NCBI GenBank assembly: GCA_030698625.1
Contig: JAUYMS010000041.1
Coordinates: 11,314 to 75,313, forward strand
From: Candidatus Omnitrophota bacterium
Lineage (GTDB): Bacteria > Omnitrophota > Omnitrophia > Omnitrophales > Aquincolibacteriaceae
Reading direction: 5' to 3'
Length of the DNA stretch: 64,000 nucleotides
Shown: piece after piece, positions 1-24,121 of the stretch
Layout of the letters: the number at the start of each line of letters is the position of its first letter
How positions within the stretch are numbered: position 1 is the first letter of the stretch
Program-made: the position numbers and the translations under genes
The notes under the pieces: generated by a model
Database searches by the model: none
Told to the model about the DNA's origin: nothing
The model's input: the letters and a program-made list of their open reading frames with translations, nothing else

Positions 1-760
1 CGCCCTTTTTGGTTCCATCCGGATCAAACAACACATAGCCCTTTGCGTCTTTAATCACGGCTAAGAGTTGCTCTAAGAATTTTTCATTCCCAATTTTCAA
101 TGTTTCGGTAATAAATCCCAGCCGTTTCGCCGCGGCTTTGGTCTTAAACTTTTTCGTGTATTGAGCAAGTTTTGTCCAATCAATTTCTTTTTGTTTCACC
201 CAAATCCCGCGAACCGCGTCGATTAATCCGCCGCAAATATCGGGGCGGTCGAGGCCGTCTAAAATAGTCCGCTCAAGATCACTCACCCGGACTTGTTCCT
301 GCTTCGTGGCCCAATGCGTGGTACGGCCCCAGAAATGTTCTTTCTTGGAATAGATAAAGTGGTACTTAATGTCTGTCAATTTTTTACCCGCCACACGCTG
401 AGGAATAGTGATGTAAACATCCATAATGGAATGCGAAGTCATTCCATGCAGGCGCATCGCGCTGTAGTGAGAAATAAAATAAGGATGCGGAGCTGCTATT
501 TCGCGGGCAATGATCGGCCAGTTTTTTAACTGAGTATTTTCCTGACCTGTTTTAAGAATTAAATAAACGCCCGCTTTTAATCTTGCAATGAGACCTCTCT
601 TCACAAGCTCACTGAGAAAATCGCCCGTTGCGTAGGCATCTTTGCCGTAAAGGCGACGGAAAGCGTCTAATGAAAAAGTAGTCTTTCCGTTCTTTTGAAG
701 CTGATTCAGCAAATGAGCGCTTTTAGGGCCCAGGGTCTTTGTAGGATATGGGGTTTTCAT
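1..760 (-). CDS. Partial CDS (C-terminus beyond window start). Winged-helix AbiEi-like (type IV TA/abortive-infection antitoxin family) protein.
   Basis: Manual reverse translation from ATG at 758-760 gives an open frame to position 1 with no stop. It is absent from the ORF track only because it runs off the edge. The N-terminus reads MKTPYPTKTLGPKSAHLLNQLQKNGKTTFSLDAFRRLYGKDAYATGDFLSELVKRGLIARLKAGVYLI (wHTH with the R-G-x-Y-x-I/L signature). Further on, VSDLERTILDGLDRP resembles the ERTLLDL motif of AbiEi-family proteins. Confidence 0.45.
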   Translation of the reverse strand, partial: MKTPYPTKTLGPKSAHLLNQLQKNGKTTFSLDAFRRLYGKDAYATGDFLSELVKRGLIARLKAGVYLILKTGQENTQLKNWPIIAREIAAPHPYFISHYSAMRLHGMTSHSIMDVYITIPQRVAGKKLTDIKYHFIYSKKEHFWGRTTHWATKQEQVRVSDLERTILDGLDRPDICGGLIDAVRGIWVKQKEIDWTKLAQYTKKFKTKAAAKRLGFITETLKIGNEKFLEQLLAVIKDAKGYVLFDPDGTKKG

Positions 761-889
761 GAGCTATATAATATGTATGGAATTAAGGATATCAACCTTA
801 ATTTTAGACACACAATATAGTGTTATCTATATCTTATTTGATTACAATAAGTTATATCGTCTTTAAAACCGCGCCAATCCCACAACGGC

Positions 890-2980
890 TTAGATCTCGC
901 TCACTGTGATGGCTGATGTGGTGAGGTTGAGCTCGAAGCGCTTTCCGTTGACCAGGGTGAAGGTCGCAAAATTACCTGCGAGACTTCCGCTGCCCGGCAA
1001 AAAGGCATAGCCGGCCGCGGCTTCTCCCGCCGGCACACGGATTTGCACCGAGCGCATCCAGTCCGCGTAGACGTCGCCCAACTTGATGACCGTAACATCC
1101 AGATAACTCACATTGGGTACGGGATCGTGATTGTGAAGGTCCGTCGTAACAATGAAGTCATTGTTGAGAAACGTCCGGCGGAAAACAGGCACCGCAGGAA
1201 TTTCCTGCCGCCTGTTCACAAGGCGGGCACGAAAAGCGCCGGTTGCGCGTTCGCGCAGGATTAAATCCTCGTTCTCGACTTCAAGCGACCACTTCTGGTC
1301 AGGCGTGACCACGATTTGAGGCGCATCAAAACGGTGCACTTCAAGCCGGCCCGCCAAATACTTCCCCTCCACGATGAAGTAAAGCGCGCGCACCCGGGTG
1401 AGGTCCACGCCGTAAGCCTGGAAGGGCGTTTTCGTGATCGCCCAGGGCTGGGGGGCATCGCTTTTAATCCCGGAAAAAATCACCGAACCCTTCTTATTGT
1501 CAGCGTCGACAATCTCAAACTTTATGCGGTCAACATCCCCGACAAAGTTAAAACCAAGGTAGGGCAGCGCAGTCAGATCAGCCGGTTGATCATAACGCCA
1601 ACCGGTTCCGGCCCAACCTTGTGCAGCGGTATTAAATTGAAAACGAATACCCAGATCGATCTGCTGAGTGTTCGCAACAATACCCGACGGTGAGACCGTG
1701 GTTGGGTACGGATCACCCGGCAGTTCCTGAATGCCTGCCGCGAGGTTCGGCTCGATCGCGGTGGGAATGCGGTTGATCTCGATCGTGCCGGTCTCATGGA
1801 CTCCTTCCACGATAAAATAAATCATGCGTACGCGGGCAAGATTAACGCCCGAGGCAGCCAGGTCCGCAGTCGAAATCACCCATTCGTCCCGCCGTTCAGC
1901 CGTAATGCTGTGCAGGTAGACCACCGCCTTACGGTTTTGGTCGTCGATGACCTCAACCTTGACCCGGTCCGGGTCTCCGCTCAGACTGAAGATCAAGCTT
2001 TCATAGCCGCTCAGATTCGCGGTTTCAATGGGCCCGGTGCCGAAGTCATCGTAGTTAAATCCTCCGCCGACCCAACCGGGCGCACCGGTATCGTAGGTCA
2101 TACGAATCCCGCGGCCCGTATCTTCAATTGAAGCCGACGCCCCATTCGGGATAACGGTGTTGTTCCGAGGCCTGCCGGGCAAGCGTGTGATATGCTCCTC
2201 GGATTGATAAATATCCGCATAGCCTGATCCGCGCGGGTACTGGTTCACCGTGACGTTTCCTGTTTGATTCTGACCTTCAACAATGAAGTAAATCACCCGT
2301 ACCCGCGACATATTTACGTTCTGAAACGCGGATCGCGGAACGGTCCACACCCGCTCAGTATCCGAACGAATACCCGTCAGATAAACGAAGGACTTCTGAT
2401 CGTTTTCGTCGACGATTTCCATTTTGAGCTGATTAATCGTACCCTGCAGCCCGAACGTGAATTCGGACAGGCGGGTCAGGTCCCCTGTTTCGATCGCACC
2501 GGTCCGGAAGTCGTCGTAGGTGAATCCTGTGCCGGCCCAACCGGGGGCCCCCGTCTCAAAGTGAAAATAGACGCCGCGGTCCTGAGAGCCACCCGTGGCC
2601 TGTGCACCGCCCGGGGTAATGAAAGTCTCCTTCGGATACCGCGAAATACCCACGGGTAAGGCGCGAATTTCGGATGTCGTACGCGATGAGGGGCCGTAAT
2701 TCGCGGGAGCGGCCTTTGCCGCCTGCGGCGTTTCGGCTGCAGACAAGGCGGCAGCGCCTAAAAACTCCGCCATCGGCTCAGCCTTAAGCGATTTCTGTGC
2801 AGATTCCACAACAGCGCCGGCCGCATCGGCATCAACGGGAACGGTAGCGACCGCGCCCCGGGGCTCTAAAATCACGGTTGAGTCGGCAGCGAATGCCGTC
2901 ATCACCGGTGTAAAGATCATGCTCATCGCAGTGACTACCGCGATGACCTCGTTTGCCGGATTGTGTTTTATCGTTTTCAT
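890..2980 (-). CDS. Secreted protein (signal peptide, Ala-rich linker) with three tandem ~115-aa repeat modules (repeat protein A). Function unknown, possibly carbohydrate-binding beta-sandwich-like.
   Basis: 696-aa ORF. The N-terminal signal is MKTIKHNPANEVIAVVTAMSMIFTPVMTAFA. It has three internal repeats sharing G-x-R-x-x-Y/F-x-T-G-A-x-G-W-x-G-x-G-F-x-Y-D-D-F ... K-x-E-I/V-V/I-D ... V-Y-L ... R-V-R-x-I-Y-F-I-V-E-G-x-x-x-T-G. An AAGGAG SD lies about 9 nt upstream of the ATG. A LacI-type operator lies about 58 bp upstream. Confidence 0.8.
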   Translation of the reverse strand: MKTIKHNPANEVIAVVTAMSMIFTPVMTAFAADSTVILEPRGAVATVPVDADAAGAVVESAQKSLKAEPMAEFLGAAALSAAETPQAAKAAPANYGPSSRTTSEIRALPVGISRYPKETFITPGGAQATGGSQDRGVYFHFETGAPGWAGTGFTYDDFRTGAIETGDLTRLSEFTFGLQGTINQLKMEIVDENDQKSFVYLTGIRSDTERVWTVPRSAFQNVNMSRVRVIYFIVEGQNQTGNVTVNQYPRGSGYADIYQSEEHITRLPGRPRNNTVIPNGASASIEDTGRGIRMTYDTGAPGWVGGGFNYDDFGTGPIETANLSGYESLIFSLSGDPDRVKVEVIDDQNRKAVVYLHSITAERRDEWVISTADLAASGVNLARVRMIYFIVEGVHETGTIEINRIPTAIEPNLAAGIQELPGDPYPTTVSPSGIVANTQQIDLGIRFQFNTAAQGWAGTGWRYDQPADLTALPYLGFNFVGDVDRIKFEIVDADNKKGSVIFSGIKSDAPQPWAITKTPFQAYGVDLTRVRALYFIVEGKYLAGRLEVHRFDAPQIVVTPDQKWSLEVENEDLILRERATGAFRARLVNRRQEIPAVPVFRRTFLNNDFIVTTDLHNHDPVPNVSYLDVTVIKLGDVYADWMRSVQIRVPAGEAAAGYAFLPGSGSLAGNFATFTLVNGKRFELNLTTSAITVSEI

Positions 2981-3038
2981 TTTTCTTTATCTCCTTGTTA
3001 TTTTTTCCCCTTGCTTCCTTCTGCCTCTGTGCCTTTAA

Positions 3039-3052
3039 TGTAAGCGCTTACA
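3039..3052. promoter_or_regulatory. Perfect 14-bp palindrome TGTAAGCGCTTACA (LacI-family operator type) in the promoter region of repeat-protein gene A, between the LacI-1 stop and the gene A start.
   Basis: Read directly: tgtaagcgcttaca is self-complementary. It matches the LacI/GalR-family consensus TGnAAnCGnTTnCA (cre/PurR-like). Confidence 0.6.
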
Positions 3053-3070
3053 CTTAAGGGCCAAAAAAAT

Positions 3071-4114
3071 TTACGCCCGGCTCACGGTCTTGCGCTCAAC
3101 GAATTCGGCAGGCAGAAGCGTTTGATTTCCGTAAAAGCCGCGGGCTGCCTTCTTACCCAGGTGACCGATCATAATCTCGGCACCCCGCTTGGCCACGTCG
3201 TAAAGCGGCATCCTCACGGTCGTAAGCGGCGGGCTCATCGTCGCAGCCGCTTTCTCATCGTCAAAGCCGACAACCGAGACGTCGCTCGGGCACTTACGGC
3301 CCGCTTTGCTTAAGTGCTGAATGGCGCCTCGCGCCATGGCATCGTTCAGGCAAAACATCGCCGAAAAATCCTTTCTCTTTTTTAAAAGTTGAGCGGCGGC
3401 CTCTTCGGCCTTCTCTTCGCGAAAATCGCCGCAGACGATCATGTCCTGATCCAAGCCGATCCCCTTTTTCTTTAGGTAACCGCGAAAGCCTTCAAGACGC
3501 AGACGGCTGTCGACCGAGCATGCGGCCCCGGTCATCACCGCTATTTTGCGGTGGCCTTGCCCGTAGAGGTATTCGGCGGCCAGTTTTCCGCCCGCCGCCT
3601 GATCGCCGCTTACGAAGTGGGCATGCACATTCTTTTCGGGATCCCCCAGAATAACGCAAGGCACACTCAGGTTACGAAATGCGGACTTATCCGAAAAGAA
3701 GGCGTGCCAATGCGTGACAATCAAGCCGTCGATTCCCTCGGCAGCTTTGAAATCGTATTTATTCCAATGGGTCTCGCCGCATTTGAGCATCAACACCTTG
3801 AAGCGGTAGGGCGTATTGAGGAGGGCATCGGAAACGCCGCAGAGTATTTGCGCATAATAATCGTTTAGGAAAACGCCTTCTCCGTGCGGCACCAAGACCC
3901 CCAATGTCCGGTACACCGCCTGAGTCAGCCCTTTAGCGGCGAGGTTCGGCGCGTACTGATGCCTGGCGATTATCGCATCCACCCGCTTGAGGGTATCCGG
4001 CGATACCTTGGAGCGCGTTTCGGGGTTCATGGCGCGCGAGACGGTCGCTATCGAGACCTTGGCCTTTTTTGCTATTTCATAAATGGTTAATTTCATTTTC
4101 CATCCTTTTTCCAT
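3071..4114 (-). CDS. LacI-family transcriptional regulator (paralog 1).
   Basis: The N-terminal HTH reads MKLTIYEIAKKAKVSIATVSRAMN, followed by a periplasmic-binding-protein-like sugar-binding domain. The true start is more likely M7 (about 4096) than 4114, because the operator sits 5 bp from the 4114 ATG. Confidence 0.9.
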   Translation of the reverse strand: MEKGWKMKLTIYEIAKKAKVSIATVSRAMNPETRSKVSPDTLKRVDAIIARHQYAPNLAAKGLTQAVYRTLGVLVPHGEGVFLNDYYAQILCGVSDALLNTPYRFKVLMLKCGETHWNKYDFKAAEGIDGLIVTHWHAFFSDKSAFRNLSVPCVILGDPEKNVHAHFVSGDQAAGGKLAAEYLYGQGHRKIAVMTGAACSVDSRLRLEGFRGYLKKKGIGLDQDMIVCGDFREEKAEEAAAQLLKKRKDFSAMFCLNDAMARGAIQHLSKAGRKCPSDVSVVGFDDEKAAATMSPPLTTVRMPLYDVAKRGAEIMIGHLGKKAARGFYGNQTLLPAEFVERKTVSRA

Positions 4115-4119
4115 ACTTC

Positions 4120-4135
4120 ATGTAAGCGCTTACAT
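4120..4135. promoter_or_regulatory. Perfect 16-bp palindrome ATGTAAGCGCTTACAT immediately upstream of LacI-1 (putative autoregulatory operator).
   Basis: Read directly. It has the same core as the 3039-3052 site. Confidence 0.6.
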
Positions 4136-4203
4136 CCTAACACCCCTCCCCCGCTCTGTCAAGCAGTGCGGGATAATATTAGGCGGGGGGCGGAACATAA
4201 AAT

Positions 4204-4270
4204 TTGACATTTCATGATATTAGGTTAGGATATGATCTGATACAGATTAAGTCTTAATAGGATATCATCT
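4204..4270 (+). promoter_or_regulatory. Divergent promoter region between LacI-1 and the cupredoxin/FTR1 pair. It contains TTGACA (4204-4209) and a 13-bp direct repeat TAGGATAT[G/C]ATCT (4227-4239 and 4258-4270).
   Basis: Read directly. An AAGGAGAA SD precedes the ATG at 4295. Assigning the -10 element is ambiguous. Confidence 0.3.
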
Positions 4271-4294
4271 TTAAAACCCCAAGGAGAAACACCC

Positions 4295-4639
4295 ATGCAC
4301 AAGCGAGTCATCCGGTTGAGCCTTATGTCCTTATGCGTTATCGGCGTGTTTTCAAGCGCCGCACTCGCAAAAGAACTTAAAACCTTTGAGATCAAAATCA
4401 AGGATCATCGCTTTGTTCCGTCTGAAATCGTTGTTCCCGCGGGTGAAAAAATTAAGCTCATCATTGAAAATCAGGATGATACCCCCGAAGAATTTGAGAG
4501 CGACTCATTGCGGCGCGAAAAAATTATCCCTGCCCATACTAAAGCACAGGTGTTTATTCCCGCGCTTAAGCCCGGCGAGTATAGCTTTGTCGGGGAGTTC
4601 CATGAAGAAACCGCACAAGGAAAATTAGTCGCCGTATAA
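4295..4639 (+). CDS. Small periplasmic cupredoxin-like protein (FtrB-like or EfeO-N-terminal-like partner of an FTR1 permease).
   Basis: 114 aa with signal peptide MHKRVIRLSLMSLCVIGVFSSAALA. It has a beta-rich mature domain and a strong SD. It lies immediately upstream of the FTR1 gene. Confidence 0.55.
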   Translation: MHKRVIRLSLMSLCVIGVFSSAALAKELKTFEIKIKDHRFVPSEIVVPAGEKIKLIIENQDDTPEEFESDSLRREKIIPAHTKAQVFIPALKPGEYSFVGEFHEETAQGKLVAV

Positions 4640-4660
4640 CAGGAGTACTTAAGGTTTTTT

Positions 4661-5554
4661 ATGCTGTCTATTTCTATTATTGTTTTTCGGGAAGTTCTGG
4701 AGATCGCCATGATCCTCGGTGTGGTGATGGCCGTCACCCGGGGATTGGTGGGGCGCAGGCGTTGGACTGCGGCCGGTATTTTAGGCGGTCTTTTGGGTTC
4801 TGCCGTCGTCGCCTATTTTACCGGAGCGATTTCAAATACGCTGGATGGAATGGGGCAGGAAGTTTTTAATGCCTTGGTTTTGATTCTGGCGACGGGACTG
4901 ATCGGTTGGACTGTGGTATGGATGAAAAGCCATAGCGCGGCTCTCGTGCGGCAAATAAAAGATGTCGGTAAATCAGTTGCCGCGGGGGAAGTCCCCCTCC
5001 ATATGTTGTCCGTTGTCGTGGGGCTCGCGATGCTTCGCGAAGGCTCAGAGATTGTCCTTTTTATTTACGGAGCGATTGCCTCCGGGACACCCTTTTTGAG
5101 TGTGCTTGCCGGGTTTACCTTTGGACTGATTTCCGGGAGTGCGGTCGGGGCGGCACTGTATTTCGGTTTATTAACCATCTCTCCCAAACATTTCTTTTCA
5201 GTAACAAGTTTTCTTCTTATATTTTTAGCTGCGGGAATGTTATTGCAGGCCGTGGGATTGTTAACGGCAGTCGGGTGGCTCCCTGAGGGAATTTCTCCTC
5301 TCTGGGACACTTCCGCAATCCTTAGCGAGAAACACGTCCTCGGTCAACTCGCGAATGCCTTGTTTGGGTATACCGCCCGGCCCTCTGCCGCTCAGGCCTT
5401 TGCCTATTTTGCAACAGTTGCAGGGCTCCTATTCTTAAATCACCTCTATTCACAACCCGGTAAGGGAAAAAACCATGTTCGCAGCAAGCGTAAGTCAAAT
5501 GAACAGACTCATCTTCTAGGGCTCGTTATTTACGGACGCTCTTCAAACACGTGA
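4661..5554 (+). CDS. High-affinity iron permease, FTR1/EfeU family.
   Basis: Polytopic membrane protein with two RExxE motifs (REVLE near the N-terminus and REGSE in the middle). Confidence 0.85.
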   Translation: MLSISIIVFREVLEIAMILGVVMAVTRGLVGRRRWTAAGILGGLLGSAVVAYFTGAISNTLDGMGQEVFNALVLILATGLIGWTVVWMKSHSAALVRQIKDVGKSVAAGEVPLHMLSVVVGLAMLREGSEIVLFIYGAIASGTPFLSVLAGFTFGLISGSAVGAALYFGLLTISPKHFFSVTSFLLIFLAAGMLLQAVGLLTAVGWLPEGISPLWDTSAILSEKHVLGQLANALFGYTARPSAAQAFAYFATVAGLLFLNHLYSQPGKGKNHVRSKRKSNEQTHLLGLVIYGRSSNT

Positions 5555-6074: not shown

Positions 6075-6491
6075 CTAAGACTCTTCAGGCCCGACAGTGC
6101 GGCGGAGAGTTTTTTTCTGGCCCTGTTTCTTTTTGGCGTCGAGCATTTTGTCCTTCGCTCGCTTGGAGCGCTTGCGCTTTTGCCGTTTGATTTTGGCAAT
6201 TCGGTGTGCTTCTGCGCTTTCGCGGCCGCGGATGCGGGCATCCAGCTTCTTCAGAAGGATACTGCGCGCTAAAAAGCGGTTCATCGCCTGCGAGCGTTCT
6301 TGCTGGCACCGCACGCTGAGCCCCGTAGGAATATGCTTGAGCACCACACAAGTGGAAACTTTGTTTACGTTCTGTCCGCCCGGCCCGCCGGACCGCACGA
6401 AGGTTTCCCGGAGGTCGGCTTCGCGAATGCCAAGCCGCTTCATGGCCCCGGCCAGTGCGTCATTCTTCTTTTCGGTGACCGGAAATCGCAT
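6075..6491 (-). CDS. arfB: Alternative ribosome-rescue factor ArfB (peptidyl-tRNA hydrolase, YaeJ family).
   Basis: 138 aa. The GGQ motif appears in GGPGGQNVNKVSTCV. It has a basic C-terminal tail typical of ArfB. Confidence 0.85.
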   Translation of the reverse strand: MRFPVTEKKNDALAGAMKRLGIREADLRETFVRSGGPGGQNVNKVSTCVVLKHIPTGLSVRCQQERSQAMNRFLARSILLKKLDARIRGRESAEAHRIAKIKRQKRKRSKRAKDKMLDAKKKQGQKKTLRRTVGPEES

Positions 6492-6713: not shown

Positions 6714-8105
6714 TTATGGCTTCACGACAAACACCACATCTCCTTCGCCGTCGAGGCGGCCGAACTGGGGCGTCTGAAGATTGTTGGAGGCACGCGACAC
6801 TTGCGGTTTGAGAAAGGCCCCAAGCTCGGAGGCTGTTACCACGTTGTCATTGTCGCGGTCGGCTTCTCCGTCGAGGCCCCTCAGCAGATATTCGGTGAAG
6901 ACACCGTGGCCCTCACGCTCCATCACTTGTTCTCCTTTACCACCGGCGGTGATCATTTGGATCGACCGCATGCCGGTTATTTTCTGAATGTACCCGTTAA
7001 TGCCGGGATCGATTCCCGCCGCACGGGTAAAGCCAAGCCCTGAATAACAGGCATCCATCATATAGAGCATGTGCTTCGCCGGAATGCGGCGGGAAAGCGC
7101 TCTGATTTGGTCCATTGAGATCGCTGTCGTGAAATAATTGGTGATGTCGCCGTCTACGGGAATAATGTATCCCTGCTCTTTGCCGTCAGTCAGGGTTTCT
7201 GTCTGTCCGTGCCCTGCGAAGAAAAGCACAACCCTATCTTCGGCCCCGACTTTCTTAGGCAGCTCGCTTGCTAGCAATGTCAGAATCCTTGTGCGTGTGG
7301 CGTCTTTATCCAGGACTTCAATGACCTCGTCAAAACCGATTGCCTCAAGTTTTTGCTTCACGGCCCGCGCATCATTGACCGCATATTCCAGAGACGGCCA
7401 GAGATCATAGTTGTTGATACCGATTACGACGGCCCAGCTTTTTTGGTAATAATCTCCGGTTTCGAGTTCGCTCGCTTCAGGCGGCCCGAGTTCACCCCTT
7501 ACCGGAGCGGAAATCACGCGACGCTCGGCAAAGGCAATGAGGGGCGAAGAATGGTCGAGATTGTCCGCGAACTTGGAGAAAGTTTCCTGCAAGACCTTGC
7601 GGAAGCCATAGCTCCAGGGCGACGCCGTGGCCTTGCCGCCGCCTTCGATCGTATCGAGGATTTTCTGATCACGGTTCATCAACGTGCCCGTGAGGTCCAC
7701 CGTGGTTGTATTGAAACTTCGTTGACCCAGGGTGCAAAGCAGATCCACGGACATAACTAGATCGGCTTCGCCTTGTAGAGCTGCCTCAATACTCTCAAAT
7801 TGAACCACACTTTTAAAACGCTTCTCAAGGATTTCCTGCAAACCCACCGTGACCAGATCCGCACCAATGTCGCTGGTCGCGAGCGGATAGGCCACCTTCG
7901 CCAATCTCTTATTCTCTTCAATGTAGTCGAACGCCCTTTTGGCATTCTCTGTGTGCACGATGCCGAGTTTTAGTTTTCCGAGAGGCCCGCTTTGACCCCC
8001 GGCCGACCTCAGGGCAGAGACGGGATCCAAATAGCTGGGCGTTGAAACGCAACCCGACATCCATAAGAGTACGGCACCGGTGAGCCAGAAGTTTCTTGAG
8101 ATCAT
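6714..8105 (-). CDS. Lipoprotein with a C-terminal peptidase C14 (caspase/orthocaspase) domain.
   Basis: Start reassigned to the ATG at 8103-8105 (MISRNFWLTGAVLLWMSGC, lipobox Cys; GGAG SD 10 nt upstream). The caspase fold shows the His-Gly (FFAGHGQ) and Asp-Ala-Cys (MMDACYSG) catalytic dyad context. A C-terminal DGEADRDNDNVVTASEL motif is typical of bacterial caspase homologs. Confidence 0.8.
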   Translation of the reverse strand: MISRNFWLTGAVLLWMSGCVSTPSYLDPVSALRSAGGQSGPLGKLKLGIVHTENAKRAFDYIEENKRLAKVAYPLATSDIGADLVTVGLQEILEKRFKSVVQFESIEAALQGEADLVMSVDLLCTLGQRSFNTTTVDLTGTLMNRDQKILDTIEGGGKATASPWSYGFRKVLQETFSKFADNLDHSSPLIAFAERRVISAPVRGELGPPEASELETGDYYQKSWAVVIGINNYDLWPSLEYAVNDARAVKQKLEAIGFDEVIEVLDKDATRTRILTLLASELPKKVGAEDRVVLFFAGHGQTETLTDGKEQGYIIPVDGDITNYFTTAISMDQIRALSRRIPAKHMLYMMDACYSGLGFTRAAGIDPGINGYIQKITGMRSIQMITAGGKGEQVMEREGHGVFTEYLLRGLDGEADRDNDNVVTASELGAFLKPQVSRASNNLQTPQFGRLDGEGDVVFVVKP

Positions 8106-8176
8106 TCCCTGTTCTCCATGATATCTGTTTCGGCCATTCAGGCTGAAATCCCAAGGGAAGGATACGCGCAGGAACG

Positions 8177-9400
8177 CTAGGGGGCAAGGGCGGACCAAAG
8201 CTCCTGAAGCTTGGCGTAGGCCGGGCGAAGCCGGGTCTTGAAGTTCGTGCCTTCTTTTTCTATCGCAGCCAGCCCGAACCACTCTTCGACATCATCCGGA
8301 CTCTGTTCTAAGGAATCTTCTTTCCCGAATTTCCACCACGCATCTAGATATTCGTGCACGACCATTCCGGCAATGGGCGACGACGCCGTCGTGATGTCGC
8401 GCCAACTCTGCTCAAGACCTGTCGCTTGCTCTTCCGGCGTGTTGCCGCCGTATCCGTAATCGGGCGATCCGTAATGCTCGGCACCCGGCGCAACGCTTAA
8501 GCCTGTTTCCGTGACCAGCAGGAGTTTGTTCGGGTGCTTGCGTTTAAGCTGCTCGAGCCAACCCTGGAAGAGGGTCCCGGTAGCCGACCCTTCATCCGCC
8601 TGCGCATATTCTAAAACGGCGTAACTGTATGCATTGAAGCTTCTGAAATCGAGAAACGTTGTGTCCAGCAAATCGTAAGTCCGGGCTTCGTTGGCGTAGG
8701 AGACAAGATGCGTATGTCCGTAGCGTTCTGTCTGGTAGGTCTTAAGGTAATCCGCTATTTCAGCGATGAAGCTCTCGGTCGCCGTCGAACCTTTCGGTGC
8801 GCTGATATACTTCCCGTCATAGCCGCTGATTTCGGGATGGAGATCATCGGTCGATTCCACACTCGCCCGGCTCAGTTCACTGCCGACGATAAAGCCAAGG
8901 ATGGGCGGGGGTTCTTCTTCGGAGTAAACCGAATAGATGCGGCTTAACGTGAGACGAATCGCATGCTGACAGCGGCGTTTATAGGAAACATTCTGTAAGT
9001 CCTTCTGACTTGGGTCAAACCAGATCGTCTGAATGAAGGCCAGGTCCCCGGCATCCTTCAAGGCCTCATAGACAAAAACGGGAACTTCCCAGAGGCGAAT
9101 CGTGTTGGCGCCCGCCCCTTTGATGTCGTCGATATCCCGGCGAATCCGCGCCTTCAAGGGCTCCGGCAGATCCGTTTTCCGGACAAGCTCCCAAGGGACT
9201 TCGCCCGGATAAACGGGGACATAGACAATGCCTTTGACGAGGAACTTTTCGCCTTCTTGGAAAAAGTAATCGTCACCCAATTCGAATTCGGCGGCCGAAA
9301 CGGGCGCAACGAACGACCCCAAACAAAGACAGAAAGCCGCAACCCATTTCACCCATCCCCTTCCAAAGATATTTGAGCACCGTCTTTTATTCATGCGCAT
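8177..9400 (-). CDS. Secreted GH5-like (clan GH-A, TIM-barrel) glycoside hydrolase.
   Basis: Signal peptide present. GANTIRLW is the typical N-terminal GH5 strand. An NEA/NEP-like acid/base motif appears in VSYANEART. A nucleophile-like motif appears in LLLVTETGLS. Confidence 0.55.
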   Translation of the reverse strand: MRMNKRRCSNIFGRGWVKWVAAFCLCLGSFVAPVSAAEFELGDDYFFQEGEKFLVKGIVYVPVYPGEVPWELVRKTDLPEPLKARIRRDIDDIKGAGANTIRLWEVPVFVYEALKDAGDLAFIQTIWFDPSQKDLQNVSYKRRCQHAIRLTLSRIYSVYSEEEPPPILGFIVGSELSRASVESTDDLHPEISGYDGKYISAPKGSTATESFIAEIADYLKTYQTERYGHTHLVSYANEARTYDLLDTTFLDFRSFNAYSYAVLEYAQADEGSATGTLFQGWLEQLKRKHPNKLLLVTETGLSVAPGAEHYGSPDYGYGGNTPEEQATGLEQSWRDITTASSPIAGMVVHEYLDAWWKFGKEDSLEQSPDDVEEWFGLAAIEKEGTNFKTRLRPAYAKLQELWSALAP

Positions 9401-9446
9401 ATAAAAATAACGGGCAGTAACCGACGCGTTTCATCGGCTACTGCCC
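9401..9446 (-). terminator. Rho-independent terminator downstream of repeat-protein gene B.
   Basis: The hairpin stem is GGGCAGTA (9412-9419) pairing with TACTGCCC (9439-9446), with an inner CCGA/TCGG. On the minus strand it is followed by GTTATTTTTATAT. It directly abuts the start codon of the GH5-like gene. Confidence 0.5.
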
Positions 9447-9512: not shown

Positions 9513-11804
9513 TTAGCCAATCTGTCGCACTTCCAGAGTCGACAAGTTCACTTCGTAGATCATGGTGACGCCGTCGACCACGGCTTCGATAATCGCAATG
9601 CCCGGCAGCCATTGAATTAATCGGAGCGTGAGCCCCGTCGTGAAATGCGGGATTTCAACTTTGACCGACGGGTCGTCGAGACTTTGCACAACGATGGTTA
9701 TGTCCTTGGGATTGCCGGCATAGCCGCCGTCGGGCGAAACATCGTAAACATCACTGAACGCGTCGCGAAACCCGACGCCTTTACTCATGTTCACGAGTTC
9801 CGTTTCTTCGCCTGTCAGAATATTCACCACCGCAAGCCGCTGCTGATACCACCCCGAAAAGCCCGAGTAGGTATAGGAGTCGATAAACCAATAATCCGGA
9901 TTACTGGCGGAGGGAACAAACACTCCGGTTAAAGGAGATTCGAGTCCGAAAATATGCGTCTCGAGATGTCCGGGAACATCATAGACCGCATACTTGCCGT
10001 CGAGGATCACGTCGTGATTCTGAGTGCCGTCGGTAAACGTGATGATTTGGCTTTCTCCGGTCCGAAAATCCATTACTTCTAAAATGCCGTCCCTGCGGAA
10101 TCCGAAACGGGGATCTGAGGGGGCCGGCGCCCACCCTGAAAAATCGACAGGGACATGGGTAAACTCCATCGCCCCCGTCTGCTGCGGCCCTTCTACGATC
10201 ACGAAGATCATGCGAAGGCGCGTGAGATCGATCCCCTGTAAATACGAAGCGGGAATGCGATACATTAATTCTTGGTCAGGCCGGATGCCCTCGACGTAAA
10301 CCGCACGCTTATTGTCAAAGGCATCGACAAACTCCAATTTTACGGTGGCGGCATCACCTTTGAGACCGAATACAAATTCGGGATATCCGCCGGCATCAAA
10401 TGACTCAACCACGGCAGTCGCAAAATCATCAAAGGTCAATCCGCTCCCGGCCCAGGTCGCGTTATTGGTTTGATAATCCATATGCAATCCCCTAGCCGTA
10501 GCCGTTGACGTAACCGTGGCCTCGACAGGCGCGATCACCATCGCGGATGCGGGGGGCAGCTGCGTGTGGTCTGAAAGCAATCCGTCGTCGACCGGAACCA
10601 CCCCGGGAATAATACCCTTGGAAGGCGTTTGATAGAGGATGTCGAGAGTTCCCGTCTCATAGGCCCCTTCGAGAATGAAATACATGATCCGAATTCTCGT
10701 GAGATCAATGCCTGAGAAAGCCGCTGTCGGGATATTCCAAAACTGAGTCGTATCGGACTCGATTCCGGATAGATAAATTACGGCTCTTTGGTTCCATTCA
10801 TCGATGACTTCGAGTTTCACTTGTGCCGCGTCACCGCGAAGACCGATGATCAATTCCGGATAGTAGCGCATATCCACGGTTTCGGTCTGAGCGGTCGAGA
10901 AATCATCGAAGGTCAGTCCCCCGCCTGACCAGCCGTCGGCCCCGTTTGCGTAGTTAAGGCGCACTCCCCGTGAAGTCGTCTCGATAGCCGTTTGAGAATC
11001 CGGAGGCGCGACCACCGTCTGCTGCGGCAAATAGGTACCGTTGGTGCTCCAGGTCTCGGGAAGTCGCGTGACCTGATTCACGGTTAGATCAGCGTCCGGA
11101 TTGACCGATCCTGCCTCAACCGGCTGAATGTTCATTTCCAGTTTCCCGGTTTGATACTGACCTTCCACGATAAAATACAGAAGCCGCGTGTTGCTCAGAT
11201 CCACCCCTTGAAACCGGCTGGTATCGATGACCCACACCTGCTCCTGCTGCGAAAGAATTCCCGTTAAATGAACGGAACTTTTATTGTTATTCACGTCCAC
11301 AATTTCAAACTTGAGGGTCGAGACATCGCCCTTAAGCCCGATGATAAGCTGTGATGTTGCGGACAAATCCATGGATCCGGCCGAATCGAACGAAAACCCG
11401 CCTCCGGCCCAACCCGCCCATGATGTGTCATAGTTCATGACAGCGCCGCGTCCCGTCGGCGAAATCGAAGCCATCCAAGACTGAGCCGAGACCGTTACGG
11501 GATCGGGATCCGGAACCGGCAAAGGCTCAATATCGGTGACATCCTTATCTTGTGAAGGACTTATGGGCCCCTCCGCCGATGCCGCAGAAAGCGGCCCGTC
11601 GGGAACGGTTGAATCCGAAACGACCGCCACGGCCTCTTCGGCAGATGCCTTGTCTTCGGCTGCCGCAAGGCTCATCACAGGTGTGAATTGCCCCATTGCG
11701 TTTTGACCGATGGTCTGTTCGGCATAACCGATAGGCGAAACGCTTGTGACCATAAAGAAAATAACTGTTGTTAAAGCGAGTTTCGAAAGTGGATTGTTTT
11801 TCAT
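9513..11804 (-). CDS. Secreted protein with three tandem ~115-aa repeat modules (repeat protein B, paralog of 890..2980) plus a distinct ~200-aa C-terminal domain.
   Basis: 763 aa with signal peptide. It has the same module signature (GW.G.G..FDDF ... K.E.VD ... R.R..YFIVEG..TG) three times. It lies 40 bp downstream of LacI paralog 2. Confidence 0.8.
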   Translation of the reverse strand: MKNNPLSKLALTTVIFFMVTSVSPIGYAEQTIGQNAMGQFTPVMSLAAAEDKASAEEAVAVVSDSTVPDGPLSAASAEGPISPSQDKDVTDIEPLPVPDPDPVTVSAQSWMASISPTGRGAVMNYDTSWAGWAGGGFSFDSAGSMDLSATSQLIIGLKGDVSTLKFEIVDVNNNKSSVHLTGILSQQEQVWVIDTSRFQGVDLSNTRLLYFIVEGQYQTGKLEMNIQPVEAGSVNPDADLTVNQVTRLPETWSTNGTYLPQQTVVAPPDSQTAIETTSRGVRLNYANGADGWSGGGLTFDDFSTAQTETVDMRYYPELIIGLRGDAAQVKLEVIDEWNQRAVIYLSGIESDTTQFWNIPTAAFSGIDLTRIRIMYFILEGAYETGTLDILYQTPSKGIIPGVVPVDDGLLSDHTQLPPASAMVIAPVEATVTSTATARGLHMDYQTNNATWAGSGLTFDDFATAVVESFDAGGYPEFVFGLKGDAATVKLEFVDAFDNKRAVYVEGIRPDQELMYRIPASYLQGIDLTRLRMIFVIVEGPQQTGAMEFTHVPVDFSGWAPAPSDPRFGFRRDGILEVMDFRTGESQIITFTDGTQNHDVILDGKYAVYDVPGHLETHIFGLESPLTGVFVPSASNPDYWFIDSYTYSGFSGWYQQRLAVVNILTGEETELVNMSKGVGFRDAFSDVYDVSPDGGYAGNPKDITIVVQSLDDPSVKVEIPHFTTGLTLRLIQWLPGIAIIEAVVDGVTMIYEVNLSTLEVRQIG

Positions 11805-11844: not shown

Positions 11845-12876
11845 CTAAACTTCTCGGACTGATCCCCGCTCAACAATCGAAACCGGGGAATAACAAGGTT
11901 TGCAAAACCCCGCATCCTTTTTGTGTCTTATCTGTTCGATAAGATCCGTGGCCGCTTTTTTGGCCAAATCATAAACAGGCGCCTGCACGGTCGTAAGCGG
12001 CGGGGAGGAGTGCTCCGTGCGCATATCGTCGTCATAACCCATGACGGAAAGTCTCCCCGGACAGTCAACGCCGCGTTCGCGAAGCCGCCTAAGAATACCC
12101 AGCGCTTGAATATCGTTCATACAAAATACGGCCGTAAACTCCGGCTTACGGGCCAGCAGGTCGTCGGTAATCTCGTAAGCCCGCTGCTCGTCAAAGTCGA
12201 CCTTAAAAATCGAATCGTCATCGACCGTAATTCCCTTTTCTTCCAGGTAAGTTTTAAATCCCCTGAACCGCTCGCGGATGTCGGGCGAATACGGTATGCC
12301 GTAAAGGGTGGCGATACGGCGGTGCCCATGATCGTACAGGTATTTCGCGGCCATTCGCCCCCCGCTGAAATGATCGCCGGCTACAAACCGGGCTTTTATG
12401 TCCTCTTCTACGTTATTGATGATGACGCTCGGGATTGTGAACCGGTTAAACACTTGGCCGCCGGAAAATATGGTTCGCCAATAAGTAAGGATCACTCCGT
12501 CGACACCTTCCCCGTCTTTGATGTTGTAGTGATCCCATCTCGGTTTCTCGGGTTTCATGAGAATCATTTTTAAGCGAAACTCCGTATCCAGAAGAGCGTC
12601 GGCAACGCCCGATATGATTTGGGAGTAGTATTCGGAAAGAAGAATTCCCGTATGATGCGGGAACACGACCCCGATCGCCTGATAGGCGGTCTTTCTAAGA
12701 TTTTGCGCAGCAAGATTCGGGGTGTAGTGGCACTTCTTGACGAGGGCATCGATTTTTTTTAGGGTTTGAGGGGCCACCTTATGCCTTGTTTCGGGATTCA
12801 GGACTCGCGAGATCGTCGCGATTGATACCCCAGCCTTGGCCGCCAATTCACGTATGTCGTTTTTTGTCTTTTCCAT
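11845..12876 (-). CDS. LacI-family transcriptional regulator (paralog 2).
   Basis: The HTH reads IRELAAKAGVSIATISRVLN, followed by a sugar-binding domain. It is clearly paralogous to 3071..4114. Confidence 0.9.
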   Translation of the reverse strand: MEKTKNDIRELAAKAGVSIATISRVLNPETRHKVAPQTLKKIDALVKKCHYTPNLAAQNLRKTAYQAIGVVFPHHTGILLSEYYSQIISGVADALLDTEFRLKMILMKPEKPRWDHYNIKDGEGVDGVILTYWRTIFSGGQVFNRFTIPSVIINNVEEDIKARFVAGDHFSGGRMAAKYLYDHGHRRIATLYGIPYSPDIRERFRGFKTYLEEKGITVDDDSIFKVDFDEQRAYEITDDLLARKPEFTAVFCMNDIQALGILRRLRERGVDCPGRLSVMGYDDDMRTEHSSPPLTTVQAPVYDLAKKAATDLIEQIRHKKDAGFCKPCYSPVSIVERGSVREV

Positions 12877-12888
12877 ATCCGTTCTCTT

Positions 12889-12904
12889 ATGTAAACGTTT
12901 ACAT
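12889..12904. promoter_or_regulatory. Perfect 16-bp palindrome ATGTAAACGTTTACAT, 12 bp upstream of the LacI-2 start (putative operator).
   Basis: Read directly. It has the same arms as the LacI-1 operators but the central core is AACGTT instead of AGCGCT. Confidence 0.6.
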
Positions 12905-13056
12905 CATAGTACCGCATAATGTCCCGTTCGTCAATGATCAGGTGTAAAAACGTCCGAGAATAATCGTTCACTATCTATAGGTTTAAGAGTTAAGCTATGA
13001 ATCGCGGCGGGCCGTATATCTTCACCTGTCCTAACAGAGACAGTTAACCCGTAGAC

Positions 13057-18835: not shown

Positions 18836-19195
18836 TTACGCCGGCGGTTCAAGGAGTTTCATTACAGCTTGCTCAAGGGCGGGAAGTTTTGAAGTAACGA
18901 CATCCCACAAAATGTCGAGGTCTACACCGAAATATTCATGGATCAAAATATCGCGCAAGCTGCCGATCTTCACCCATTCGATATGCGGTTGTTTGCTGCG
19001 CGTTTCATCAGGCAGCTTCTTGACCGCTTCACCCAGAATCTCCAGGTTCCTTACAACGGCATCTGCGGTGCGCATGTCATTTTTAAACTTCGATAGGTCG
19101 TAGCCTTCCGTGTATTGCCGAATGCGTTCTATTGCCTGGAGAATATCTTCGAGATAGACGATTGCATCACGGGGCATCGATGAGATCGCCCTCAA
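18836..19195 (-). CDS. hepT: HepT-like HEPN toxin (DUF86), type VII TA system.
   Basis: Rx4HxY motif in SLRDILIHEY. It overlaps the upstream MNT gene by about 29 nt. Confidence 0.8.
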   Translation of the reverse strand: MRAISSMPRDAIVYLEDILQAIERIRQYTEGYDLSKFKNDMRTADAVVRNLEILGEAVKKLPDETRSKQPHIEWVKIGSLRDILIHEYFGVDLDILWDVVTSKLPALEQAVMKLLEPPA

Positions 19196-19454
19196 TGTTT
19201 TTTCGGATTCTCGGTTTGAGGGTGTCGAGGAGTACCAGGTCTACCCGGCATTCAAACAAGCTCTCCAAATCGTGCTTTAAACCCATATAGGCGTCAAAAG
19301 TCTTCGTCTCGAAGGCTACAATAAAATCGAGATCACTTTGATGCGTCATTGCTTGACGGGCGCCTGAGCCGAATAACTGCAGTTTCCGGACACCATATTT
19401 TTTTAATATAGCGCGGTTCTGATGAATTTTGCGGATAATCTCTTGTCGATCCAC
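19167..19454 (-). CDS. mntA: MNT-like minimal nucleotidyltransferase antitoxin.
   Basis: 95 aa. LFGSGARQAMTHQSDLDFIV is the GS...D.D nucleotidyltransferase motif. Confidence 0.8.
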   Translation of the reverse strand: MDRQEIIRKIHQNRAILKKYGVRKLQLFGSGARQAMTHQSDLDFIVAFETKTFDAYMGLKHDLESLFECRVDLVLLDTLKPRIRKNIEGDLIDAP

Positions 19455-19602: not shown

Positions 19603-20448
19603 TTAAGCAGAAGCGCTGACCTTCTCGTGAGCCAGGCGGTCTTGAATGACCTTGCCGACGAAGGTAATGGTGGGGTTTCCGTTGCGGTTCGTGCCGTACC
19701 GGACGTTCGAGGTATCGAGGATGATTGAAAGGCCGGGATACAACCTGAGAAGTTCGGCAACGGGGTCGGGTGCTTTGCGAATAAGATCCGCCTTGGGTCC
19801 GTAGTTGATAAGGGCACCGACCAGCACCAGAAGATTCAGAATCAGGTCCGCGGTTATGGGATCCAACTCAGAGACTTCCAGCGCCACGTCCAGCTACCAG
19901 ATGTTGGAACTCACCGGCACGTCCGCATTTCCGAGCAGGCTCACGGCCGCATCTCTGGACGCGATCCTGCTTGCTGTCGAAACGCGTTTCGTATGGGTAT
20001 TCACGCCGGCACGCAGGATCGGGGGCACTTCGTCGGCCACGTACGTGATGCGGCTCAGGATATTTGCATAGGTGTTGAGAGTCTCGGCGAGCCGGGCCGG
20101 CGGAACGTTGATGGGGAGATTCTTGACATTCCCGTTCTCGTCGAGTACCACGGCAATCGAGGCGCCCGAAAGGATAAGGCTTTCGGCCGGCGTCTGGGCC
20201 AGATCACTTGCAAGACGCTTGAGGACCGGTAGTATCAACTGCACATTGTCATAGATTGTCGCCAATTCTTTAGTTAATGTCCGGCGCTCTGTGAGTTCCG
20301 CTGCGAGGCGATCCGCCAGAATTGTCATCGAGCGCACGAGCGTGTCGTTCAGGGTCTCCAGTCCCACGTCTTTCGCCAGCCGGCCTGCTGCGGAGGCAAA
20401 TTCATCACGCGGCACCTCCGGCAGAAGTTCCTGAAGTGCCTGCGGCAC
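19603..20448 (-). pseudogene. Unknown protein (~281 aa) interrupted by a single in-frame TAG (plus-strand cta at 19894-19896). Possible pseudogene or read-through.
   Basis: ORFs 19894..20448 and 19603..19887 are in the same frame, separated only by TAG plus two sense codons. The downstream part is called from a GTG. An R-x5-H string (RAGVNTH) is present but does not match the canonical HEPN Rx4-6H. Confidence 0.4.
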
Positions 20449-20454
20449 TTTTGC

Positions 20455-21360
20455 CTATGCCGACTCACGCAAGATGACTTCCGGCTTGAATTTGATTTGA
20501 GCGGCGCGGCGAAGCTTGCCCGAAATAATGCCGAGAAGGATCTCGACTGCCTTCTTGCCCATGGCCGCGGTAGGTTGCCGAACAGAGGTGAGCGTCGGGC
20601 TCATGACTTCGTTTACCGGCGAGTCGTCAAAACCGGCCACCGCGATCTCGGCAGGTACGTGGATCTTATGCCTTCGAAGAATGCGGATAGCTCCGTGGGC
20701 AATATCGTCGTTGGCGCAGAGGATGACTTCGGGCCGGGCCGCGGCAGTAATGAGGCTTTTCATAATGTCATGGGGCAGGCGCTCGCTGAAATGACTGCTT
20801 TCATAGGTAAAAGCCGGGTCATAAGTCAACTTGAGCCGCCGGAGTCCGTGCTTAAAAGCCTCATAGCGTGCCTTGGCGTCCCGTGAACCCGACTCGGGGC
20901 CTCGAATCATGCCGAATCGGCGGTACCCCTTGCGGCGCAGTTTTTCGAGCAGAGTGAAAATGGCCGTCTCGTTCTCGCAATATAATATGCTGTTGCGAAT
21001 CGTCTTATCGTGATCGTTAACTAGGACAGCCGGCAGGAGTTTAGCTTTCATCATTTCGGAGACAATCCGCGGCAGATGGCGCCAAATAAAAAAGATAATG
21101 CCGTCCACGCGATGGCGCTCGAGAAGGCTCTTGAAAGTGATTTGCTTCTGCTCCCGGTCGCGGACAGGAAGCCATTTCAGATCCCAGCCTGAATGAGGCC
21201 GAAGGCCTTCGAGGACACCGGCGATCAACTCTTCAAAATAGGGACTCCGTGCCGCTTCGGCACGAAACGGAAGCACAATACCGATCGTCCGAATAGGTGC
21301 CCCGCTTTTGTCACCCCTCATAGGACGCCGCCAATCTGAAATTTTCGCCGCATTTGCCAT
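20455..21360 (-). CDS. LacI-type periplasmic-binding-fold (sugar-binding domain) protein that lacks the N-terminal HTH domain.
   Basis: 301 aa. It aligns to the ligand-binding/dimerisation domain of the two LacI paralogs (for example AVAGFDDSPV...MSPTLTSVRQP versus VVGFDDEKAAATMSPPLTTVRMP). The N-terminus MANAAKISDWRRPMRGDK has no HTH. No HTH is encoded upstream in any frame. Confidence 0.7.
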   Translation of the reverse strand: MANAAKISDWRRPMRGDKSGAPIRTIGIVLPFRAEAARSPYFEELIAGVLEGLRPHSGWDLKWLPVRDREQKQITFKSLLERHRVDGIIFFIWRHLPRIVSEMMKAKLLPAVLVNDHDKTIRNSILYCENETAIFTLLEKLRRKGYRRFGMIRGPESGSRDAKARYEAFKHGLRRLKLTYDPAFTYESSHFSERLPHDIMKSLITAAARPEVILCANDDIAHGAIRILRRHKIHVPAEIAVAGFDDSPVNEVMSPTLTSVRQPTAAMGKKAVEILLGIISGKLRRAAQIKFKPEVILRESA

Positions 21361-23359: not shown

Positions 23360-24121
23360 TTGGGACGGCTCAACTACCGAAATCAAATGAAAGATAATCT
23401 GCTCCACGGTTCTTGCGTTTTTAGTGCTACGGCTGCCCTCGTCCTTCTTGTTATCCCCTTTGCTGTCTTAGCTGAATCCGGTATTTCTGAATTGGACCAT
23501 ACATTCCAAGAAGAGCAATTACTTGCGTCTAATACGATTGCGGCCCCGCTGGTCACAGCCGGCCGCATGGCGGAGCCCGCGATCGCCATCGAGGGAATGT
23601 CTCTTTTAGCGAAACCGCTTACGACCGGTCACCAAGGAGCGCTCGATTATCAGGGCATTGCCGAACACGGCGTAAGGATTCAATTCCGTCAAATCAAGGA
23701 ACCCGTTGCTTTCTTCTGGGTTTTTGATGAACCCGTGGACCTGAGCGATCGTTGGGTTCGTGTTTATTATGCGGGCCCCATCGTACCGAACCGCCTACAG
23801 CTCAAGCTCGACCACGCCGAAGTCCGGCTCGACGGCGCCTTTGACATTTATCTCGAAAACTCGACTTGGACCCAAACAGTTTTCTTCAAGCTTCCGCGCA
23901 AGAAGACTTTCGAAGCCATCGATTCGCTGCGCCTCGTAGCGAACCCGGGGCTTCTTAAGAACAGCAGCGCGGATTTTTGGATTTTAGAAGTAGAAGTACT
24001 CCCCGAGGGTAACGATCCTTTGGGGGGAGTGTCGGATCTGTCCAGATTCGAATGGTATGACCGGCCATTCCGGCCGGACAACCACATAGGCATTAACTCA
24101 ACGCATTACAAAGCAACATGA
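23360..24121 (+). CDS. Secreted hypothetical protein.
   Basis: Signal-peptide-like N-terminus, probably starting at MKDNLLHGSCVFSATAALVLLVIPFAVLA. No recognisable domain. Confidence 0.5.
   Translation: MGRLNYRNQMKDNLLHGSCVFSATAALVLLVIPFAVLAESGISELDHTFQEEQLLASNTIAAPLVTAGRMAEPAIAIEGMSLLAKPLTTGHQGALDYQGIAEHGVRIQFRQIKEPVAFFWVFDEPVDLSDRWVRVYYAGPIVPNRLQLKLDHAEVRLDGAFDIYLENSTWTQTVFFKLPRKKTFEAIDSLRLVANPGLLKNSSADFWILEVEVLPEGNDPLGGVSDLSRFEWYDRPFRPDNHIGINSTHYKAT

Follow-up and report, generated by a model that had tools for sequence, protein, structure and literature searches.

Two LacI-linked exported proteins of a Candidatus Omnitrophota bacterium carry three copies each of a new CBM-like module

What is the module that occurs three times in each of two large proteins of an uncultured bacterium, and what could it serve for? 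The question is raised by a 64-kb window (the whole stretch of DNA analysed here) of a Candidatus Omnitrophota metagenome-assembled genome (MAG), in which two genes, A and B, encode the proteins in question. Members of this phylum are uncultured and often ultra-small, and their surface proteins, thought to mediate host attachment and cell-wall attack, are almost entirely unannotated. An original prediction, made by eye from the sequence, had noticed the repeat, could place it in no named family and suggested a role in glycan binding or capture. Our analysis leads us to propose, with a probability of roughly 55%, that A and B are sugar-inducible, exported, trivalent putative glycan-binding proteins built from a new family of modules resembling carbohydrate-binding modules (CBMs). 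The two open reading frames (ORFs), their modules as delimited by hidden Markov model (HMM) envelopes and their C-terminal domains are the following (aa, amino acids).

890..2980, minus strand: gene A, intact ORF, 696 aa
2234..2635, minus strand: module A1, aa 116-249 (HMM envelope)
1763..2170, minus strand: module A2, aa 271-406, the copy used for the structure model as aa 265-406
1325..1711, minus strand: module A3, aa 424-552 (HMM envelope)
893..1324, minus strand: C-terminal domain of A, aa 553-696, 144 aa
9513..11804, minus strand: gene B, intact ORF, 763 aa
11121..11507, minus strand: module B1, aa 100-228 (HMM envelope)
10626..11027, minus strand: module B2, aa 260-393 (HMM envelope)
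10149..10553, minus strand: module B3, aa 418-552 (HMM envelope)
9516..10148, minus strand: C-terminal "domain X" of B, aa 553-763, 211 aa, about four beta-propeller-like blades with a DVSPDG motif

Both proteins run from a signal peptide through a linker and three modules to a C-terminal domain, which is a partial propeller in B and, in A, a separate domain (residues 553-696) that the original prediction had not mentioned. The signal peptides that had been predicted are, as read from the sequence, of the Sec type (...VMTAFA/ADS in A, ...PIGYA/EQT in B); neither protein has a lipobox cysteine, and an Ala/Pro/Ser-rich linker of 70-80 aa follows, Ala-rich in A. Protein A is identical to the hypothetical protein Q8R76_08715 of a Candidatus Omnitrophota MAG at NCBI, and gene B is present with the same neighbours on an independent assembly (L019).

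The repeat survives alignment by software. From a single seed (A residues 264-406), phmmer recovers exactly six module copies, three per protein, at independent E-values between 4.5e-26 and 2.8e-38, and BLASTP of A against B yields register-shifted alignments, offset by one and two modules (E 3e-59, 1e-48 and 6e-26). A six-frame HMM scan found no further copies in the window. The module spans 130-137 aa (about 135) with a period of approximately 155-160 aa, so that the length of about 115 aa first proposed was an underestimate. The motif skeleton drawn by eye agrees with the software consensus, RG....Y.TG..GWAGGGF.YD.F.T...E..DLS...L.FGL.G....VK.E.VD....K....L.GI..D.E.VW.........GVDL.R.R.IYFIVEG.N..G.LE.NR.P.

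Copies within one protein share 29-40% identity. Modules at the same position are far more alike between orthologs, with 46-63% identity between A and its orthologs P0002 and P0003 (for module A1, 52% to module 1 of P0002 and 49% to module 1 of P0003) and 62-71% between B and its ortholog P0034 (71% for B1). The triplication must therefore be older than these orthologs; on the strength of these identities it is ancient and no recent DNA repeat, and every module position has been separately conserved and maintained.

The newness of the module was judged against Pfam, NCBIfam and the sequences of the PDB. Protein A has no match in Pfam-A or NCBIfam, and the sole Pfam trace in protein B is to CBM30 (PF21582; E 0.089, 13.2 bits against a gathering score of 27). 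When 28 single modules were compared with Pfam, one matched CIA30 (PF08547) at E 0.0032 and one matched CBM30 at E 0.049. CBM11 (PF03425) gave no match at E<=1 in A, B or any of the 28 modules; a CBM_11 match (E 2e-5) occurs in one of 35 full-length family proteins, at a position inside the protein that was not located. A search of solved structures with the module profile found no family member in the PDB, the best match being a CBM32 at E 0.23, and we found no paper describing the module. The early statement that the module lies outside the named families is thus upheld, since the traces amount to one copy each of CBM30 (E 0.05-0.09) and CIA30 (E 0.003). By sequence the module appears to be a member of neither CBM11, CBM30 nor CIA30. 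The CBM30 and CIA30 traces in Pfam and that of CBM32 in the PDB nevertheless point in the same direction as our proposal.

For the fold, A module 2 (aa 265-406) was modelled with AlphaFold2 from a 28-sequence alignment. The model is of high confidence (predicted local distance difference test, pLDDT, 96.9; predicted template modelling score, pTM, 0.90) and comprises ten beta-strands and one short helix, as the beta-strand-like periodicity noted by eye had suggested. Foldseek against the PDB matched it to the N-terminal accessory domain of GH50 exo-beta-agarases, CBM11, CBM30, a mannanase CBM, CBM29, xanthanase and CIA30, the E-values lying between 1.7e-6 and 1e-3 and the template modelling (TM) scores between 0.6 and 0.69; CBM8, GH144, CBM29, CBM44, CBM15, CBM4 and SGBP-B came later among the structural matches. 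The CBM-like sandwich for which the original prediction had proposed a search is recovered in the model. It superimposes as a beta-jelly-roll on CtCBM11 and has the features of a galactose-binding-domain-like beta-sandwich, and the module is accordingly modelled as a beta-jelly-roll of the galactose-binding-domain-like superfamily, in the branch of CBM11, CBM30 and CIA30.

The predicted likeness to CBM11 (CtCBM11 of Clostridium thermocellum Lic26A-Cel5E, PDB 1v0a and 6r31) is one of beta-jelly-roll fold, whereas sequence identity is only about 14% and the module has 135 aa against about 170 aa in CBM11. In the comparison with CBM30 and the CBM-like N-terminal domains of GH50 agarases, xanthanase and other enzymes, the sequence traces remain below the Pfam gathering score (13 against 27 bits), and the modules of A and B have no attached catalytic domain. 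The presence of CIA30 in both the sequence and the structural results raises the alternative of an assembly or chaperone domain unrelated to carbohydrates. We consider it highly implausible: CIA30/NDUFAF1 proteins are intracellular or mitochondrial single-copy, single-domain assembly factors, whereas the modules stand in tandem in exported proteins and have dockerins and a glycosidase domain as fusion partners within the family, and CBM11 and other accessory domains of carbohydrate-active enzymes rank above CIA30 in the structural comparison.

Conservation was assessed over 491 module instances from 156 proteins. The most conserved positions are D82 (95%), E79 (89%), G41 (88%), D47 and L92 (82% each), followed by T51, E55 and D116 (79% each); either Asp or Asn occupies position 116 in 94% and position 58 in 96% of the copies, and Y32, W39, Y46 and W103 stand at positions that are nearly always aromatic. 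According to the predicted secondary structure, the beta4-beta5 loop contains D47, T51, E55 and D58, the beta6-beta7 turn D82 and G85, and the beta8-beta9 connection D116, so that the most conserved polar residues (D47, E55, D58, E79, D82 and D116) are in or next to these three loops. Since consecutive strands run antiparallel through the sandwich, the three connections would fall at the same end of it, and we infer that the conserved acidic cluster forms a putative site there. Loop sites at the end of the sandwich, often assisted by Ca2+, are the location found in modules of the CBM6/32/35 type, whereas CBM11 binds its ligand, beta-1,4 or beta-1,3-1,4 glucan chains, in a cleft on the concave face.

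The regulatory context provides a second line of evidence. Each module gene lies directly downstream of its own lacI gene, on the same strand, with the following features.

3071..4114, minus strand: lacI-A, LacI-family repressor of 347 aa, with Pfam LacI helix-turn-helix (HTH) and Peripla_BP_1/3/4 domains
3039..3052: operator TGTAAGCGCTTACA, perfect 14-bp palindrome between lacI-A and gene A
4121..4134: operator TGTAAGCGCTTACA, perfect 14-bp palindrome directly after the -10 of the lacI-A promoter-like site
4134..4162, minus strand: lacI-A promoter-like site, TTGACA-17-TAGGAT, extended TG
11845..12876, minus strand: lacI-B, LacI-family repressor of 343 aa, ending 40 bp upstream of gene B
12890..12903: operator TGTAAACGTTTACA, perfect 14-bp palindrome directly after the -10 of the lacI-B promoter-like site
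12906..12934, minus strand: lacI-B promoter-like site, TTGACG-17-TACTAT
9412..9446, minus strand: terminator-like hairpin, 15-bp stem then a T-run, ending the lacI-B/B unit

The two repressors share 44% identity, and both combine a PF00356 HTH with a periplasmic-binding-protein-like effector domain (PF13377/PF00532/PF13407). The closest PDB relatives of LacI-A are RbsR and CcpA, and those of the repressors also include LacI and PurR. With up to two mismatches allowed, the pattern TGTAARCGYTTACA is matched three times in the 64 kb, where chance would give 0.4; each match is a perfect palindrome, and all are located at the two cassettes. The lacI promoters would thus each carry a 14-bp palindromic operator of the TGTAANCGNTTACA type, as judged from the letters, with central bases that differ between cassettes A and B. 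Gene B starts 40 bp past lacI-B and has no operator of its own, and it is therefore probably co-transcribed with lacI-B.

The same arrangement recurs elsewhere. The module gene is immediately preceded by lacI, and the operators occupy matching sites, in an Omnitrophota MAG (L001, carrying P0003; operators at 5255-5268 and 6344-6357), in groundwater contigs (L009/L010, carrying P0002; operators on L009 at 2452-2465 and 3535-3548) and in L015 (carrying P0005; a single operator at 316-329), and the operator between lacI and the module gene is also occupied in L001 and L009. The more distant members P0004, P0007, P0008 and P0010 have no LacI gene. From this recurrence, lacI and the module gene appear to constitute a conserved cassette of two genes under autoregulation, of which this genome has a duplicate. 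Together with the palindromes at the lacI promoters and before gene A, the conservation of the cassette gives the LacI control originally proposed much stronger support.

A third LacI-family paralog is encoded at 20455..21360 (minus strand); it has periplasmic-binding-protein domains and no N-terminal HTH, and the ORF cannot be extended upstream. It is followed by an ORF of 184 aa with no Pfam match (19894..20448, minus strand). The paralog may be what truncation has left of a third cassette, or else a sensor that has no HTH.

To what extent does the module occur outside this genome, and in which company? The family is rare: of 1.84 billion representative proteins, searched exhaustively with the HMM, 420 carry the module at E<=1e-3 and 161 do so at E<=1e-30. 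Among the best 150 carriers together with the first homologs, a protein contains 1-19 copies at strict thresholds and up to 23 matched stretches, the longest having 7110 aa. In species-representative genomes, searched with a six-sequence module alignment, the close relatives comprise five Omnitrophota MAG loci together with Planctomycetia, Chlamydiae and one unclassified bacterium, and the module is found in Elusimicrobia as well. As regards confinement to one lineage, the carriers with an organism name, the named giant members included, are all from Omnitrophota (some of the giants labelled merely "dockerin domain-containing"), and relatives are present in Elusimicrobia, Planctomycetia and Chlamydiae. 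With these bounds, the module is likely a new, lineage-restricted CBM-like family, in which glycan binding would be the shared property.

Pfam recognises very few domains in 35 large family proteins. Dockerin is found in two, and Big_13, glucodextranase domain B, a lactonase propeller, F5/8 type C, beta-helix, HYR and FG-GAP occur sporadically. Several of these (dockerin, glucodextranase B, F5/8 type C and beta-helix) are extracellular or carbohydrate-related, which supports the proposal of glycan binding. A further partner, which emerged when the sequences between modules were read and compared with the PDB, is an insert of 430 aa with an (alpha/alpha)6 fold, present between modules in 25 of 156 family proteins at E<1e-10 (20 at E<1e-80) and flanked by modules on both sides. 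Its profile matches PDB 8xuj over the full length (E 9.6e-37) and the GH189 transglycosylase domain 8wy1 at E 9e-7. The first of these is EeSGL1, a characterised beta-1,2-glucanase and the founder of GH192, with D149 as base and E221 as acid (Nakajima et al. 2025, PMC12102758); these residues align with the invariant Asp of a "GDNANL" motif and the invariant Glu of "(D/N)EFR" in the insert.

In these relatives, which lie outside the window, the partner domain therefore combines full-length homology to the GH192 founder with its catalytic Asp and Glu, and no recognisable catalytic partner of the module is commoner than this beta-1,2-glucanase-like domain, apparently active to judge from these residues. 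Modules on both sides of a glycosidase are a classic CBM architecture. The relatives thus contain the module as a discrete, independently folding unit inside carbohydrate-active enzymes, the arrangement that defines CAZy-type modules; A and B do not. A beta-glucan, possibly beta-1,2-glucan, is in this regard only a lead as to the ligand.

The partner enzyme family acts on beta-1,2-glucans, which Gram-negative bacteria have as periplasmic or cyclic glucans (PMC12102758), and A and B might accordingly remain in the periplasm and bind envelope or periplasmic glucans there, whether made by the cell itself or imported, for instance as a buffer or sensor of periplasmic beta-glucan. In keeping with such a location, the proteins have a Sec signal peptide only, with no recognisable outer-membrane secretion tail and no Pfam or NCBIfam matches. 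Dockerin domains in the relatives, a weak C-terminal tail of the type IX secretion system in an Elusimicrobia homolog and members of several thousand residues, which would be unlikely in that compartment, argue on the other side, and we regard the periplasmic alternative as very unlikely.

The length of many members invites another reading, which we judge possible although rather unlikely: in the surface proteins of Omnitrophota the module could be a repeated beta-sandwich of structural or adhesive use, which serves as a spacer or binds proteins or cells when the bacterium attaches to host or prey, and which has no specific glycan ligand. On this view A and B would be small counterparts of the phylum's giant surface proteins. 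Very long proteins with many copies do prevail in the family (copy number reaches about 20 and length 7110 aa), its named members are Omnitrophota "dockerin domain-containing" proteins, and FG-GAP, HYR, Big_13 and propeller blades are among the partners. Moreover, on L016 (9098..13453 and 1..4493, a JGI 3300042261 contig) the gene for P0007, which has two modules and a lactonase-type propeller, is flanked on one side by a gene for at least 1951 aa and on the other by one called at 12,994 aa, so that the module family adjoins true giant genes. For Omnitrophota giant proteins, attachment and cell-wall attack have been proposed as functions (bioRxiv 10.1101/2023.11.21.568195; PMC10066038). A dedicated repressor of the LacI type, presumably sugar-responsive, for each gene would however be unusual for a purely structural adhesin; the conservation of several acidic residues at about 90% in 491 copies argues for a site and not a spacer; and modules are repeatedly fused around a glycosidase domain.

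Several observations also weigh against the sugar-inducible, trivalent glycan-binding proteins that we favour. CIA30, discoidin domains and phage and flagellar sheath proteins appear in the same lists of structural matches, and the beta-sandwich fold therefore serves non-carbohydrate functions as well. The conserved acidic cluster could be merely a structural site for Ca2+ or another metal. A and B themselves have no catalytic domain, and neither cassette includes a transporter or a hydrolase; a signal peptide alone does not decide whether the proteins leave the periplasm. Furthermore, the modules of A and B are nearest to those of propeller-bearing or module-only proteins, the best enzyme-linked copy ranking only 10th to 55th by closeness to them, and the family proteins that bear GH192 (25) and those that bear domain X (28) are non-overlapping sets (P0011-P0155). 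Since modules like those of A and B occur in proteins lacking the enzyme and the two sets are disjoint, enzyme fusions inform on the ligand of A and B indirectly. This mutual exclusion suggests two architectural classes, possibly with different roles.

Domain X occurs in 26-28 of the 156 family proteins (41-65 instances, identified by iterative HMM searches among family proteins at iterations 2-4, with drift into the module by iteration 5), frequently as tandem copies, and its place may be N-terminal or C-terminal: it is C-terminal in the ortholog P0034 and present as two N-terminal copies in P0003. The C-terminal domain of A is common only to P0002 (E 1e-34) and one segment of P0061 (E 4e-9), and comparison of the two C-terminal domains detected no relation (BLASTP E 1.2; hhalign probability 0.4-4.5%). 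The domain of B is thus absent from A, as originally described, but it is not unique.

These findings allow us to propose a model for the two cassettes. While an inducing sugar is absent, each cassette would be repressed by its LacI repressor, bound to the 14-bp palindrome that abuts the -10 of its own promoter and, in cassette A, also to the second identical palindrome before the module gene. When the cognate sugar or oligosaccharide is present, the repressor would leave its operators, and the trivalent binding protein would then be exported, so that the glycan could be captured or adhered to through avidity, with the C-terminal domain (in B, the open partial beta-propeller) tethering or oligomerising the protein. 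A more ambitious version, which we hold to be quite unlikely, would make the module a new CBM family for beta-1,2-glucan, essentially confined to Omnitrophota and neighbouring ultra-small lineages; A and B would be sugar-induced multivalent sensors or adhesins for envelope glycans of host or prey, and the giant GH192-like fusions would degrade that glycan in an epibiotic or predatory lifestyle. We found no paper on a beta-1,2-glucan-specific CBM of this fold, and the module is a possible first dedicated beta-1,2-glucan binding module.

Stand-alone glycan capture by several CBMs has a counterpart in SGBP-B of Bacteroides, a surface glycan-binding protein (SGBP). SGBPs are lipoproteins encoded in SusC/D loci under the control of hybrid two-component systems or extracytoplasmic function (ECF) factors, whereas A and B have neither a lipobox cysteine nor SusC/D and belong to a minimal LacI-autoregulated two-gene cassette.

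Within the phylum, a repeat unit that is CBM35-like and associated with dockerin has been described in Omnitrophota giant proteins, with about 200 aa and flanking dockerin-like helices (West-Roberts et al., bioRxiv 10.1101/2023.11.21.568195), so that CBM-like repeats in Omnitrophota are not unprecedented. Both that unit and the module are unannotated CBM-like beta repeats of surface proteins in the same phylum, and some carriers of the module are of the dockerin type; in contrast, the module has 135 aa and Pro/Thr-rich linkers lacking dockerin-like helices, a distinction drawn from the published description. Identity of the two was considered and is unsupported, given the Pro/Thr-rich linkers with a WGDFDFTP..NPDATNP motif and, by that description, no dockerin helices. 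In the giant members P0016 and P0026, the linkers between modules are conserved, of 30-60 aa, and carry the motif WGDF(D/E)FTP..NPDATNPA(I/V)TKVP.

What is gained is a real, previously unannotated domain family of a well-known structural and functional class, and no new principle; CBMs with a beta-sandwich and LacI cassettes are already textbook material. The analysis defines a compact module with a high-confidence fold, with nearly 500 instances in about 150 representative proteins, as a candidate new CBM family for CAZy and Pfam. It also offers a tractable entry point, in the form of a 135-aa domain or of a 700-aa protein with its repressor and a 14-bp operator.

Other genes of the window touch these cassettes to a lesser degree. 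A GH5-like enzyme next to gene B had been taken as an argument for a glycan-related role.

8177..9400, minus strand: GH-like gene, member of a family of about 400 aa, TIM-barrel-like glycosidase candidate
23360..24121, plus strand: ORF of 253 aa with an N-terminal hydrophobic segment and no Pfam match

That argument is weak. The ORF at 8177..9400 has no GH5 match and its family has no model in Pfam or NCBIfam; the best Pfam match is a weak one to GH72 (E 0.036), and the best solved relative is PDB 9fz9, a "GH2 catalytic domain-containing protein" (E 9e-18), on which we found no publication. The apparently unpublished entries 9fz9/9g5g/9g4n are the only solved relative of the family. The protein is probably a clan GH-A-like glycosidase by these similarities. 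Over 300 homologs, about 50% identical to it, occur across diverse bacteria, and JGI labels a few of these as GH17-type exo-beta-1,3-glucanase. The 15-bp-stem hairpin lies between the stop codon of B and the start of this ORF, and no homolog of it stands beside the module genes in the other genomes. Its inclusion in the B system is rejected on account of the terminator, the unconserved synteny and the wide distribution, and its link to B is one of proximity only. Directly downstream, at 6714..8282 (minus strand), a protein of 522 aa has a caspase (Peptidase_C14) domain, with the same neighbour on L019.

The ORF at 23360..24121 had looked like a further module, as residues ~100-130 (GVRIQF..FFWVFD..EPVDLSD) are similar, to the eye only, to the first part of a module; it was rejected after hhalign gave a probability of 1.8% and the six-frame scan no match.

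Between the two cassettes, on the opposite strand, 4295..5554 (plus strand) encodes a cupredoxin-like protein and an FTR1-family iron permease, an EfeO/FTR1-type uptake pair. A protein of 1535 aa (35787..40394, minus strand) has weak SdrD_B, Glucodextran_B and FlgD_ig traces only, and together with the adjacent protein of 685 aa without a Pfam match (40395..42452, minus strand) it looks like another largely unannotated surface-protein pair. Two small overlapping ORFs at 18836..19454 (minus strand) resemble, by eye, a HEPN(DUF86)/nucleotidyltransferase toxin-antitoxin pair, and downstream of gene A the region 1..760 (minus strand) resembles, again by eye, an AbiEi-type antitoxin.

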